From contig SCTM01000153.1 of assembly GCA_004297485.1 (NCBI GenBank), positions 2,172 to 66,171 of the forward strand: DNA of 64,000 bases, read 5' to 3'. Of this stretch, positions 16,665-22,405 are shown one piece after another. The notes under the pieces were generated by a model, which saw only the letters and a program-made list of their open reading frames with translations, was not told the origin of the DNA and made no database searches. The translations under genes and the position numbers were made by a program. The DNA is from Rhodospirillaceae bacterium (GTDB lineage: Bacteria; Pseudomonadota; Alphaproteobacteria; Rhodospirillales; Rhodospirillaceae). Every line of letters begins with the position of its first letter. Positions within the stretch are counted from its first letter, which is position 1.

Positions 16665-16861
16665 GAGGGGAGGGATGGGGGGCTCGGGTGTGTGGGAGGG
16701 AGCGGCGGAGGGGCGCTGGATACCACCATCGCCGCCCAGAGGGAAAGGCGTTTCACTCCACTGTAATATCTAAAGAAATGTGCAGCACGACGGCATCGGT
16801 TGTGATCTCCATCCGCGCTAGGTAAGGTCGCTATTAAGGTCGGCTTACGACCAAAGCGGTA

Positions 16862-18205
16862 ATGCCAGGGTTTTGTGATTCCAGCAGGTTGGGGGCAGCT
16901 CAAGGACGGGGGACAGACTTGGCATACGAAGAACTGGATGTCGCGGATCTGCGGGTAAACCAAGCCAATGATCGGCACGGTGAAGTCGGCAGCGAAGATT
17001 TGGCCATTGCTGAACTGTTCCGACTCCACGACGTGCAGATGCGAAAGCTCGCTTCCGATATCATCGCAGAGGGTGCGATCTACGATGCGCCGCTGGTTAT
17101 GCAGTCGGACGATGGGTACACGGTCTTCGATGGAAATCGGCGCGTCACTTGCGCCAAACTGCTCGCCAGCCCTGCTCGAGCGCCATCTGTAGAACTTCGA
17201 ACTTATTTTGAAGGTTTGCGAGCCGGTGGTGCGGATCGAATACCCACCCGATTGACCTGCCAAGTCGAGAACAACCGAAATACAATCGACAGCATACTCT
17301 TTCGACGTCATACCGGTTCACAAGGTGGCGTCGGCCAACTCGACTGGAACGACCGCGCCAAGCTAAATTTTGTGGAGCGGACCGGACGCGGCGGCGCAGT
17401 AAATATCGCGGCAGAGGTAGAACGTCTTCTCACAGAAGCGGAAAGGCTTCCGCAAGAGGACATGCCATGGTCCACGTTGACGAGACTGTTATCGTCGGAG
17501 GAATTCCGGAATCGCGTAGGGGTTAGCACTGCGGGGCGACGCTTCCAGTTAACGCATGAACATGGGGCCGTTACAGACGTACTCCACAGAATTGCAAGCG
17601 ACCTAGCTAATCAAGTCGTGACGCTAGGCCATCTTTGGAATAACGAGGGCAAGAGAGCCTATCTCAATCAACTAGAAGCAGAGGGCGTACTGCCCAGCGC
17701 CAACGAACGATTAGAGGCTCCGATTGAAGCAGGGCGAGCCCCAAGGAATCCGAGGCGAAATCAACCTCGTCCTCAGCCGCCGCAAACGACATTCATACCT
17801 GCGGACGCCCCCAATATTCAGTGGATTGCCGCGCAACAGCGCATAAGAGCCGTCTGGGAAGAGCTGCAATCGTTGACATTTCGGCAGCATCCCAATGCAA
17901 TATCGGCACTAATGCGTATTCTGGTCGAACTTTCAGTAGAAAGCTACATGAACGAACATCGCCTGCCGGAGCAGGATAATCTTTCACGTAAGGTGCGTGT
18001 TGTTTCGGAACATCTCCGAAATCGTCAGATAATCGATCAGGCATATTACGACGAGTTGGAAAGAATTAGGCAGAACGATCAGTTGATCTCTATCGCCAGT
18101 ATGCAACGTTACATCCACTCGCCCGATTTCGCGCCGCTCGAAAACGAGCTTCGAACCTATTGGGTGCGACTGGGACGTTTTCTTATAGCAACACTTAATC
18201 GCTAA
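16862..18205 (+). CDS. ParB/Srx-fold N-terminal domain protein with a long unknown C-terminal region
   Basis: The ParB-like arginine motif VFDGNRRV lies at 17129-17143 (DGNRR). A proline- and arginine-rich linker is followed by a helical C-terminal domain. The region has lower GC. The start is uncertain, since a TTG at 16919 is also possible. Confidence 0.55.
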   Translation: MPGFCDSSRLGAAQGRGTDLAYEELDVADLRVNQANDRHGEVGSEDLAIAELFRLHDVQMRKLASDIIAEGAIYDAPLVMQSDDGYTVFDGNRRVTCAKLLASPARAPSVELRTYFEGLRAGGADRIPTRLTCQVENNRNTIDSILFRRHTGSQGGVGQLDWNDRAKLNFVERTGRGGAVNIAAEVERLLTEAERLPQEDMPWSTLTRLLSSEEFRNRVGVSTAGRRFQLTHEHGAVTDVLHRIASDLANQVVTLGHLWNNEGKRAYLNQLEAEGVLPSANERLEAPIEAGRAPRNPRRNQPRPQPPQTTFIPADAPNIQWIAAQQRIRAVWEELQSLTFRQHPNAISALMRILVELSVESYMNEHRLPEQDNLSRKVRVVSEHLRNRQIIDQAYYDELERIRQNDQLISIASMQRYIHSPDFAPLENELRTYWVRLGRFLIATLNR

Positions 18206-18270
18206 ATATTGCGAAGATCACGACACTCACGCACCGGCCATATTCATATTGGCTAGCGCCCCGGTCAAGA

Positions 18271-19041
18271 CTAAGCCCGGCCTCCGTTAGGACCGAACGG
18301 GCCTGCTCGAAATCGCGGTGAGAAGGTCGCTTCAAAAACGGGAGCGAGCATGTCGTATAATTCGTCCAGACGCCGCACCAGTTTACGCATCATGGCGTTG
18401 AACTCCCGCTGGAGCTCAGTGAGCCCTTCGCGAAAATAGCGATTAACCGGGAGCGGCTGGCCATTCTCGCCCATTATCCCGTTGTGCCGATGCTCAAAGA
18501 GAGACCCCATCTTGAACATTTGATCATCACTGCTGAAGCCACGTTCAGCGCCGTGATGAAAGCGACCATTGCGTTCCTGTCGTAACGTTCCCTGATCGGC
18601 TATCATTTCATAGAGAAGATCAAGAAACGGCTTTGGCACGCCAGCTTTCTTGAGCCTTGCAGCAGTACAGTCGCGCGCGTCCAGCTCGCACTCGAATACC
18701 TCATTGATGAGAAGCATCACGCAATCGACCACTGAAATGAAGCGCATGAGAAAGGCATCTGCCGAGACCGTTAGCCATTCGTAGCGCGAGAGCGGGAAAT
18801 TTTTGAAATTGTCGGGAAAATTCTCGGACCAAAGCATGTCTCCAACCATGTTAAGAGACTCGACACGTCGCGTCAGCGTGGACAGGAAGTGGTTGACGCG
18901 AAATGCGTATTTGCAGTCAGGATGTTTGGCCAGTTCATCGTACGTGTCGAAGTGAAGTCCGACGATGGAAAGATCATAAATCCGACCCACGAATTCATGG
19001 TTGTCGGAGGGCAAGATGAATCTTTTTAGCGGCCTGGCCAT
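18271..19041 (-). CDS. Hypothetical protein with a HEPN-like R-x4-H motif
   Basis: All-helical 256-aa ORF. RNGRFH lies at 18556-18573, an Rx4H motif with Asn after the Arg, as in many HEPN RNase families. The region has lower GC and I see no clear ribosome-binding site. Confidence 0.45.
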   Translation of the reverse strand: MARPLKRFILPSDNHEFVGRIYDLSIVGLHFDTYDELAKHPDCKYAFRVNHFLSTLTRRVESLNMVGDMLWSENFPDNFKNFPLSRYEWLTVSADAFLMRFISVVDCVMLLINEVFECELDARDCTAARLKKAGVPKPFLDLLYEMIADQGTLRQERNGRFHHGAERGFSSDDQMFKMGSLFEHRHNGIMGENGQPLPVNRYFREGLTELQREFNAMMRKLVRRLDELYDMLAPVFEATFSPRFRAGPFGPNGGRA

Positions 19042-19146
19042 AATCGCTATTACTTATTGTGGGAAGGCGCTCAAACTATTTGGTCGGCAGCTCTTATTCA
19101 GGCAGAGCCTTTTCTACCTAAGAACCTCCACGGTATCCCACAACCT

Positions 19147-19205
19147 CACTCCCGCTCAATCATTCCCGGCGGCTTTGACGTCACAGGCAACGCGGTTCAC
19201 GTCCA
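19147..19205 (-). pseudogene. Degenerate copy of the guaA 3' end (remnant 2)
   Basis: TCACTCCCGCTCAATCATTCCCGGCGGCTTTGACGTCACAGGCAACGCGGTT aligns with the true guaA end TCACTCCCATTCTATGGTCCCCGGTGGCTTTGACGTCACATCGTAGGTGACGCGGTT. It would encode TSKPPGMIERE* against [11 protein letters not shown] in guaA. Confidence 0.7.
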
Positions 19206-20560: not shown

Positions 20561-20638
20561 CACTCCCACTCAATCGTCCCTGGCGGCTTACTGGTCACAT
20601 CATACGCCACGCGGTTGACACCCTTCACCTCGTTGACG
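20560..20638 (-). pseudogene. Degenerate copy of the guaA 3' end (remnant 1)
   Basis: About 80% identical to 20852-20930. It translates to [24 protein letters not shown] against [24 protein letters not shown] in guaA. Most differences are synonymous. Confidence 0.85.
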
Positions 20639-20652
20639 TCATCGTAGGATTA

Positions 20653-20844
20653 TCACTTCTTACCGGCCCATCCCCGCTCCGCGACCCGGCTCATCTGCTC
20701 GGCGGACAGGGCACGCCGACCCGGCTTCTTCAAGCAACCGAAAACATCGGAAATCTTTCCCGTGGGCACGGCCTTTGCGGTTTCGGACGCGAAGACGCGT
20801 GCTTTCCGTACGCTTTTCAGGATGCGCTTACCTTCCTTTGTCAC
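20653..20844 (-). CDS. Small ORF resembling the C-terminal tail of an AbrB/VapB-type antitoxin, possibly a remnant
   Basis: DVFGCLKKPGRRALSAEQMSRVAERGWA resembles the tails of AbrB-type antitoxins, but the SpoVT/AbrB DNA-binding part is absent. The GTG start lies 7 nt after the guaA stop. Confidence 0.3.
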   Translation of the reverse strand: MTKEGKRILKSVRKARVFASETAKAVPTGKISDVFGCLKKPGRRALSAEQMSRVAERGWAGKK

Positions 20845-20851
20845 GTCACTC

Positions 20852-22405
20852 TCACTCCCATTCTATGGTCCCCGGTGGCTTTGACGTCACATCGTAGGTG
20901 ACGCGGTTGACGCCCTTCACCTCATTGACGATGCGGTTGGCGATCTGGCCCAACAGCGCCATGTCGAAGTGGAAAAAGTCGGCGGTCATGCCGTCGGTGG
21001 ATGTGACGGCGCGCAGCGCCAGCGCGTAGTCATAGGAACGCGCATCGCCCATGACGCCCACGGTGCGTACGGGCAGCAGCACGGCGAACGCCTGCCAGAT
21101 GGAATCGTAGAGGCCAGCGTTCCTGATTTCCTCAAGATAAATCGCATCGGCCTTGCGCAGGATGTCGAGCTTTTCCCGCGTGATCTCCTGCCCCGGAATG
21201 CGGATGGCGAGGCCGGGACCGGGGAACGGATGGCGGCCCACCATTTCGTCGGGCAGGCCCAGTTCGCGGCCGAGCACGCGCACCTCGTCCTTGAACAATT
21301 CGCGCAAGGGTTCCACCAGCTTCATCTTCATGCGCGCGGGCAGGCCGCCGACGTTGTGGTGGGACTTGATGGTGACGCTGGGCCCGCCGTGGAAGGACAC
21401 GGACTCGATCACGTCGGGATAGAGCGTGCCCTGCGCCAGGAAATCGGCGCCGCCGGCCTTGTGCGCCTCTTCGTCGAACACGTCGATGAAGGTGGCACCG
21501 ATGATCTTGCGCTTTTTCTCCGGGTCGATCTCGCCCTTGAGCTTGCCCAGGAACAAATCGGACGCGTCGCGCGCGATCAGGCGCACATTGAAGCGGTCGC
21601 GGAACACGCGCACCACTTGCTCCGTCTCACCGGCGCGCATGAGGCCGTGATCCACCAGCACGCACAGCAACTGATCGCCGATGGCCTCATGCAACAGCGC
21701 CGCCACCACGGATGAGTCGACGCCGCCCGACAGGCCGCAGATGACGCGGCCTTTGCCGACTTGTGCCTTGACGGCGGCGATGGCCTGCTGCTTGAACGCG
21801 GCCATGGTCCAGTCGCCCTTGGCGCCGCAAATGTCGCGCACGAACTTCCGGTAGAGTTCGGTTCCATGGGGCGTGTGCACCACTTCGGGATGGAACTGGA
21901 CGGCATAAAAGTGCCGCGCCTCGTCGGCGACGGCGGCGAACGGCGCGCCGTCGGAGGTCGCCACGACCTTGAAACCGGGGGGCAACGACACGACGCGGTC
22001 GCCGTGGCTCATCCACACCTGCTCGCGACCGCCCACGGTCCAATGGCCGGAGAACAGGTTCGATGCGCCGGTGATGTCGACGAAGGCGCGGCCGAATTCG
22101 CGGTGGTCGGAGCTTTCCACGCGCCCACCGAGTTGGGCCACCATGGTCTGCTGGCCGTAGCAGATGCCCAGCACCGGCAGGCCCATGGTGAACAGTTCAT
22201 CCGGCGCCTTGGGCGTGCCGATGTCGAGCACCGACGCAGGGCCGCCGGACAGGATCACGCCACGGGGCGCGAATGCCTTGATGGTGGCCGCCGTGACTTT
22301 GTTGAAGGGTTGGATTTCGCAATAGACGCCGATCTCGCGCACGCGCCGCGCGATCAGCTGTGTGACTTGGGAGCCGAAATCGATAATGAGAATGCGGTCG
22401 GTCAT
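20852..22405 (-). CDS. guaA: GMP synthase (glutamine-hydrolysing)
   Basis: Full-length match to the GuaA pattern: GATase domain ([27 protein letters not shown]), PP-loop SGGVDSS and the canonical C-terminus [10 protein letters not shown]. Confidence 0.97.

Follow-up and report, generated by a model that had tools for sequence, protein, structure and literature searches.

Foreign DNA that gathers at the end of a housekeeping gene has well-described precedents. The tandem accretion model, with its cis-mobilizable elements (CIMEs), is established, and its examples include the arrays related to ICESt1 and ICESt3 at fda in Streptococcus thermophilus and tandems of CIMEs with integrative and mobilizable elements, or IMEs (PMC5704250). 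The 3' end of guaA, encoding GMP synthase, is used in a similar manner: PIMEs and islands of the GIsul2 family lie there (PMC9376610; bioRxiv 10.64898/2026.01.12.698999), the GIsul2 integrase recombining at GAGTGGGA at the end of the gene (PMC9376610), and an IncP island of Brucella suis is listed at the same place (PMC5704250). Defence systems have also been described as cargo of chromosomally integrated elements (PMC10201445). The present analysis concerns the guaA locus of a Rhodospirillaceae bacterium, contained in a stretch of 64,000 nt that is called the window throughout, where two further copies of the guaA terminus, and probably a third that is reduced to its core, bound three small blocks of foreign DNA. 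The preferred reading, to which a probability of about 0.65 is given, is that the guaA 3' end received at least three foreign units in succession, by site-specific, Campbell-type insertion. Comparison loci carry the tags L001-L141, together with one contig designated P0007.

Additional copies of the guaA terminus

The target gene is still intact after insertion, being a full 517-aa open reading frame (ORF) with a consensus C-terminus. When the last 100 nt of guaA were used as a blastn query against the whole window, two further copies were recovered on the guaA strand, namely copy 2, with 81.0% identity over 79 nt (E=1.2e-16), and copy 3 (matched at 19146-19204), with 75% identity over 64 aligned columns including gaps (E=2e-7); copy 1 is the functional terminus itself. 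A separate repeat search of the window recovered the same repeat families (D1, D2 and D4). The first-pass annotation of this DNA had the last 80 nt or so of guaA recurring at 20560-20638 and, more decayed, at about 19147-19205, and both recurrences are borne out, with a similarity well above background in formal alignment. The reading frame of copy 3 is destroyed by a 1-nt and a 5-nt gap, and weak similarity may run on to about 19228. The octamer GAGTGGGA is exact in copy 2 and has one mismatch each in copies 1 and 3; since these eight bases code for the conserved E-W-E with which GuaA ends, finding them is not evidence in its own right. A short palindrome, TGACGTCA, is found among the copies only in copies 1 and 3. 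The same arrangement is present on a Logan contig (L001).

The differences between copy 2 and the end of guaA carry a signature of selection. In 78 nt the two differ at 15 nucleotides but at a single amino acid, and third codon positions hold 12 of the 17 differences counted when the boundary codon is included (81 nt); a TCA/AGT serine switch is among them. In 20,000 trials in which 15 substitutions were placed at random, the mean was 10 amino-acid changes and the number never fell below 4 (P<5e-5). Copy 2 therefore evolved as a working gene end, and the earlier statements that it is about 80% identical, encodes a near-identical peptide with a stop, differs mostly at synonymous sites and was once the functional end of a guaA allele all hold. 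By this pattern, copies 1 and 2 diverged almost entirely while each was translated as the end of GuaA. Copy 2 is 0.87 identical to the terminus of the closest relative (L002), against 0.80 for copy 1. The GC content at third codon positions is 0.67 in copy 1 and 0.86 in guaA as a whole, and the only ATA codon of the gene, its only CCA and one of its two TCA codons all lie within the last 11 codons. The functional terminus thus looks partly foreign, the last ~33 nt (~11 codons) being probably element-derived by codon usage.

The DNA between the copies is foreign in composition, its GC content being 0.46-0.57 (about 0.50 overall) from about 16760 to 20650, whereas the flanks have 0.63-0.70 (about 0.65). 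The interval between guaA and the ABC-F gene, on the preferred reading a small accretion island, spans 4.1 kb, and the blocks, given earlier as 0.2, 1.3 and 2.4 kb, measure 213, 1354 and ~2381 nt. One of the block junctions exists elsewhere as a working guaA junction. In L136 a homologue of the HEPN gene of block 3 (87% aa identity) lies 94 nt behind an intact guaA, and in L137 another (76%) lies 77 nt behind a guaA that is cut by the contig end. Copy 3, the spacer behind it and the HEPN gene of the window are collinear with the functional guaA end, spacer and HEPN gene of L136, at 79% nucleotide identity and with the same junction, TGAGG, just past the stop codon. Because of this collinearity, copy 3 can be said to occupy the place that a working guaA end holds in another genome. 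GuaA itself is 70% identical between the window and L136 and the HEPN protein 87%, which, with the 79% collinear junction, argues that the HEPN module is horizontally mobile and once stood beside a working terminus. Homologues of the block 2 protein (~55% aa identity) are likewise encoded 12 and 45 nt behind guaA, in L082 and on the P0007 contig.

Scars of the guaA terminus are found at other loci. In L052, a metagenome-assembled genome (MAG) of Rhizobium, a 74-nt terminus repeat with 92% identity lies 2 kb downstream of guaA. The 2-kb insert consists of a TetR gene and a Rieske oxygenase gene, has no integrase, and ends in a terminus copy bearing the native TAG stop and the purT start; the 24 nt that follow the guaA stop agree with the left end seen in integrase-bearing islands, so that an integrase-less island derivative flanked by terminus copies does exist. 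L134 (positions 1-10500, Logan SRR31343243) begins with a guaA fragment cut at -84 (counted back from the end of the gene), followed by a DEAD/ResIII helicase and a 195-nt decayed guaA remnant, and continues with HEPN, T5orf172, a PD-Lambda-5_A homologue, SIR2_2 and a 594-aa ORF, after which GC content is back at the host level; L134 appears to be a second accretion array of stacked blocks at guaA. The upstream limits of the independent remnants fall between -74 and -92; those at -79 in the window and -74/-76 in L052 and the break at -84 in L134 differ by no more than about 15 nt.

An almost-erased outermost copy had also been proposed at about 16754. The motif there, TCACTCCACTG, corresponds to the final 11 nt of guaA except that one G is deleted, on the guaA strand and exactly at the GC boundary, and matches to the 11-mer with at most one edit occur by chance only about 5-6 times per 128 kb. 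Alignment finds no similarity past the 11-mer; descent from guaA is not provable by alignment, and the motif is regarded as a probable core-only scar.

Three further observations concern the surroundings of the copies. Directly past the guaA stop the hexamer GAGTGA is doubled (20846-20857, GGGAGTGAGAGTGACG), and this may be a degenerate second core left by recombination. Upstream of the guaA start, 22430-22545 holds two copies of the palindrome CCTCTCCCC(N3-4)GGGGAGAGG and further inverted repeats, which look like intergenic palindromes of the REP (repetitive extragenic palindromic) type. A remote fragment resembling the guaA 3' end lies 17.5 kb from the gene in a non-coding, lower-GC stretch (2540-3426); its score of 36.5 bits was reached by none of 200 codon shuffles, and it might be a relic of an older arrangement or of a secondary insertion.

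Table 1. Features of the guaA locus, with positions in the window
Feature	Position	Strand	Basis
guaA (GMP synthase), intact target gene, 517 aa	20852..22405	-	ORF; Pfam GATase 3e-40, GMP_synt_C 1e-43; 85% aa identity to L002
Copy 1, functional guaA terminus, last 25 codons and stop	20852..20930	-	reference copy for repeat searches
Block 1 (213 nt)	20639..20851	-	between copies 1 and 2
orf63, orphan 63-aa ORF in block 1	20653..20844	-	ORF call; no Pfam, PADLOC or NCBIfam family
Copy 2, putative displaced guaA terminus and attachment-site scar, frame intact, exact GAGTGGGA	20560..20638	-	81% over 79 nt
Block 2 cargo, 443-aa protein with DACNV sensor and DAC (DisA_N-type nucleotide cyclase) domains	19229..20560	-	Pfam DACNV 3e-16, DAC 9e-7
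Copy 3, older, frame-broken guaA terminus remnant	19146..19205	-	blastn E=2e-7, alignments
Block 3 first gene, 256-aa Cthe_2314-like HEPN protein	18271..19041	-	Pfam HEPN_Cthe2314 2e-5, below gathering cut-off
Block 3 second gene, 447-aa PD-Lambda-5_A homologue, convergent with HEPN gene	16862..18205	+	PADLOC PD-Lambda-5_A 6e-70
Probable outermost scar (AGTGG-AGTGA) at GC boundary	16754..16764	-	guaA last 11 nt minus one G
ABC-F ATPase gene, native distal flank	15018..16664	-	Pfam ABC_tran, ABC_tran_Xtn; 88% aa to L002 ABC-F
Decayed remote fragment similar to the guaA 3' end (gene positions about -100 to -30)	3329..3400	-	73% over 60 nt, E=1e-4

Block cargo, relatives and integrases at the site

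Block 1 is probably the remnant of the most recent insertion. The only database match to its ORF, orf63, is the ORF itself in a Rhodospirillaceae MAG, and given that no homologues are found the ORF is perhaps not a true gene. Block 1 was also compared with the 295-nt spacer that separates guaA from int in integrase-bearing islands; the spacing is similar (292 nt), yet no homology was found. In block 2 the ATG of the DACNV/DAC gene overlaps the TGA of copy 2. The DAC domain match lies above the Pfam cut-off, and D342-G343 (the DGA motif) and R392-H393-R394 (RHR) are invariant in 23 homologues; by domain and motifs the protein belongs to the DisA_N (DAC) type and would be a nucleotide cyclase. 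The HEPN protein of block 3 has 261 homologues, some of which are named Cthe_2314 HEPN by their sources. Its neighbour resembles the A component of PD-Lambda-5, a system described as a compacted combination of restriction-modification and abortive infection (PMC9519451). A second PD-Lambda-5 component was sought among the 256-aa, 443-aa and 63-aa ORFs without a PADLOC match, and the system is taken to be incomplete because only the A-type component is found, beside the HEPN neighbour. The cargo probably consists of conflict or defence (anti-phage) genes. HEPN together with an opposite-strand PD-Lambda-5_A homologue (43% aa), as in the window, is also found in L134 and L135.

All of the cargo except the PD-Lambda-5_A homologue lies on the guaA strand directly behind a terminus copy, so that read-through from guaA could express it. 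Promoter, terminator and Rfam scans of the region returned no Rfam family and nothing above background. No mobility function was found for any of the four block ORFs in Pfam, PADLOC and NCBIfam searches, which fits the definition of a CIME.

Genes that combine DACNV and DAC domains were also collected from other loci (L082, L083, L139-L141, L084-L130 and P0007). They are almost always single low-GC genes (0.41-0.51) in high-GC flanks, and in six of the seven places with a readable upstream gene (L139 not being among them) the gene starts 0-45 nt behind the stop codon of a same-strand housekeeping gene. The upstream genes are guaA three times, thiC twice and a PALP enzyme once; flanking repeats are seen only in the window. 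The DACNV/DAC gene is suggested by these features to be a mobile, possibly promoterless single-gene unit. Searches for distal repeats around it in L082, L083 and L141 found none, and guaA is not next to the DACNV gene in any of the 47 metagenome loci (L084-L130). In L085 and L090 the DACNV gene is directly preceded, on the same strand, by a PD-Lambda-5_A homologue (35% aa), an adjacency that could be a functional link or mere co-location in a defence island.

Among relatives of the window, the closest GuaA is that of L002, with 85% aa identity. L002 is collinear with the window upstream of guaA, and downstream it has the order guaA, a PAP2-like membrane gene and ABC-F, with no repeats and no blocks of this kind; in L003 there is no ABC-F gene downstream of guaA. 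Neither L002 nor L003 can serve as a clean empty site, on account of the PAP2-like gene in the one and the missing ABC-F gene in the other, and synteny breaks at guaA. Of the two things for which the first-pass annotation had proposed an alignment with related genomes, integrase-bearing islands at guaA were found, in six loci, and a clean empty site was not. Same-species strain variants were sought in metagenomes with a degenerate pattern for a lineage-specific peptide, without a match, so that this search brought up neither empty nor intermediate sites of the species, and the exact GuaA protein of the window is not on record. Nor did 78-nt identities point to a donor of copies 2 and 3, all values lying between 0.72 and 0.87 with no resolving power. 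Among the island-bearing genomes, the last 75 nt of guaA have a mutual similarity of 0.837 as against 0.799; 5% of random sets are as high as the former, and this is only suggestive of an element that would supply the guaA terminus.

The integrases just mentioned are P4-type tyrosine integrases of about 418 aa. Their genes follow guaA on its own strand, at a distance of about 295 nt, in 6 of some 76 alphaproteobacterial loci (L032, L034, L037, L046, L069 and L081). The enzyme is 58% identical to the GIsul2 integrase of pAB3, and in plasmid records with close relatives of it an AlpA gene adjoins the integrase. Distal attachment (att) sites of the six islands were not found within 10-kb flanks. 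The family left end after the guaA stop (TTCAGGCCCATCCG...) is present in these loci (L032-L081) and in L052. Two other records of the family were encountered. L131 (NZ_CP155767.1, 'plasmid p5' of Sphingomonas parapaucimobilis, 3975 bp, deposited as circular) holds only guaA, a GIsul2-family integrase and AlpA, and is probably a mis-circularised chromosomal fragment, not a plasmid. L132 (Agrobacterium vitis plasmid CP146241, about 19690-20000) has a GIsul2-family island in a site other than guaA, with the left junction GGGAATGATTCAGGCCCATCCG, which indicates integration at a secondary site with a GGGA core, as reported for GIsul2 on IncC plasmids.

Proposed serial insertion and competing explanations

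Under serial insertion, each entry would have been made by a circular molecule carrying, as its attachment site, a mimic of the last ~60-80 nt of guaA, and each would have left guaA intact, with a further copy of the terminus lying beyond the insert. Read in the direction of guaA, the order would be guaA with copy 1, the orf63 remnant, copy 2, DACNV/DAC, copy 3, HEPN with the PD-Lambda-5_A-like gene, the core-only scar, the native spacer and ABC-F. The outermost block would be the oldest, with decay growing outward from an intact copy 2 through a frame-broken copy 3 to a nearly erased last scar. The most likely catalyst would be a P4-type tyrosine integrase, of the GIsul2 family or similar, acting at or near GAGTGGGA and either encoded by the element and later deleted or supplied in trans, in which case the blocks would be CIME-like; transcription running on from guaA would express the cargo. 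Of all this, the repeats with their selection signature, the foreign composition, the homologous junction in L136, the scars at other loci and the integrases at this site in relatives are observed; recombinase, circular intermediates, sequence of events and expression are what we infer from the arrangement as it stands. The central proposal of the first-pass annotation, repeated insertion at the guaA 3' end with displacement of earlier termini, gains from the HEPN modules of L136 and L137, the DACNV modules of L082 and P0007, the scars of L134 and L052 and the six integrase loci. Its further proposal of heavy reductive decay has become doubtful, because five other loci (L082, the P0007 contig, L136, L137 and L134) hold these modules in an equally compact form and likewise without an integrase, and heavily decayed islands are no better supported than integrase-less units mobilised in trans.

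Several observations weigh against serial insertion by a site-specific recombinase. No integrase, excisionase, replication or transfer gene, or fragment of one, was found by tblastn and motif scan in the blocks or in the rest of the window, as had been noticed earlier for recombinases, and with the six family integrases as tblastn queries no window match was better than E=0.09. The family left end TTCAGGCCCATCCG is absent after all three copies in the window, so the blocks do not start as GIsul2-family islands do. The att sites of GIsul2 are only 19 bp long, a long guaA-like arm is present neither in GIsul2 proper (pAB3) nor in the Agrobacterium plasmid island, and in this alphaproteobacterial relative the crossover is at the core next to the stop. 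Arms of 60-80 nt are for these reasons not explained by the known biology of the GIsul2 family; with a crossover at the core, they would have to be element-borne. The codon-usage break of copy 1 lies near -33, whereas GIsul2 crosses over at the very end of guaA. In L082, L136 and L137 no distal scar was found beside the same modules, and DACNV genes directly behind thiC and another housekeeping gene, without repeats, imply that such genes can arrive by some other route. The first guaA fragment of L134, cut at -84 and without a replacement terminus, is not predicted by a simple insertion model.

A rival explanation is an import without any site-specific recombinase, in which the guaA 3' end of another alphaproteobacterium and the genes downstream of it would have arrived by transformation, transduction or gene transfer agents. 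One junction would have been made by homology within the conserved guaA end and the other by an illegitimate or a further homologous event, so that the terminus of donor or resident was left as a passenger. This explanation is considered unlikely. In its favour, none of the six loci with these modules (the window, L082, the P0007 contig, L136, L137 and L134) has an integrase beside them, copy 2 is perfectly coding and most like the termini of close relatives, and the codon break of copy 1, coinciding neither with the arm boundary nor with the GIsul2 core, is to be expected where crossovers may fall anywhere in the homology. L134 even resembles a Campbell insertion through an internal guaA fragment (-200 to -84). 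A double-crossover replacement does not, however, duplicate the terminus, and the three to four duplications here, with those of L052 and L134 and with boundaries clustered between -74 and -92, would be an odd coincidence for illegitimate joins. Moreover, termini that are only 75-87% identical are a poor substrate for RecA, and the L052 insert bears the specific left end of an integrase-bearing island family.

A local tandem duplication, in which the guaA end was copied and then decayed neutrally and the genes in between arrived independently, would agree with repeats that are direct, in the same orientation and within 1.7 kb; it is nevertheless highly improbable, since neutral decay of one copy is incompatible with the nearly silent divergence of copy 2, every block between copies is compositionally foreign, and the copy 3/HEPN junction is homologous to a guaA/HEPN junction in another genome. 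Still less credence is given to a conserved, non-mobile regulatory or structural feature, or to an artefact of assembly, a thought that is natural for a window taken from a MAG. The terminus repeat is absent from the guaA loci with enough downstream sequence, L052 excepted, which disposes of the regulatory alternative raised at the outset; the scans described above gave no Rfam family and no excess of terminators or promoters; the Logan contig shows the same structure independently; and in the repeat search the copies have no long stretches of exact identity by which an assembler might be misled.

Serial insertion may also be extended into a broader and rather speculative proposal, which is thought improbable as it stands, namely that in a group of Alphaproteobacteria the guaA 3' end serves as an integron-like capture platform, where cassettes of one or two genes without an integrase of their own (DACNV/DAC, HEPN and partners), equipped with terminus mimics of 60-80 nt, would be inserted and shuffled by a guaA-targeting integrase that is encoded elsewhere and acts in trans, and would be expressed by read-through from guaA. 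If this were true, the position of DACNV genes 0-25 nt past the stop of guaA, thiC or a further housekeeping gene would reflect that lifestyle.

Comparison with known systems

CIME accretion arrays are the nearest counterpart. As there, foreign blocks stand in series at the 3' end of one housekeeping gene, direct repeats of the gene end mark their limits, inner units have att-like flanks but no genes for integration or transfer, and the outermost scars are the most decayed. The window differs in that no unit keeps an integrase and in that the units are extremely small, with one or two genes each and one of only 213 nt; the host, moreover, is an uncultured Rhodospirillaceae bacterium.

With GIsul2 and PIME islands the locus shares the target, the last codons of guaA, and integrase relatives (58% identical) are at that site in 6 of about 76 loci. 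Unlike members of that family, the window lacks int, alpA, rep and transfer genes as well as the family left end, its repeats are 60-80 nt long as against att sites of 19 bp, and its cargo is defence-like, not sul2 or arsenic resistance. Membership in the GIsul2 family was accordingly rejected, as neither a P4-type int with AlpA next to the guaA end nor the family left end is present.

The likeness to integron arrays lies in compact units of one or two genes, in one orientation and at a fixed point, each followed by a short repeat resembling a recombination site and possibly expressed from an upstream promoter. Adjacent integrase, attI and Pc are missing, one cargo gene is on the opposite strand, and the repeats are copies of a coding gene end where an integron has imperfectly palindromic attC sites. 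The locus was for this reason not classed as an integron, there being no tyrosine recombinase in the window and the repeats being copies of coding sequence.

Defence hotspots without mobility genes exist, and the locus is like defence islands at core genes in holding genes of defence type (the PD-Lambda-5_A homologue and HEPN, and in L134 also SIR2_2, the helicase and T5orf172) with no recombinase nearby. It is unlike the usual hotspot in keeping terminus-copy scars that record the entry of blocks. Many defence hotspots at core genes show no trace of entry; scars survive in the window, L134 and L052. On the preferred reading of serial insertion, the guaA-end copies would record successive Campbell-type insertions, of which an earlier stage, modules directly behind an intact guaA, is seen in other genomes, and they point to a definite way, open to testing, in which mini-islands without an integrase could grow.

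In summary, the array has the anatomy of a tandem accretion of CIME-like units, at a site already known as a target of islands, and no new kind of system has to be proposed. The role of the guaA 3' end as a target of islands, known from GIsul2, PIMEs and IncP islands, is hereby extended to uncultured Rhodospirillaceae with cargo of the defence type.

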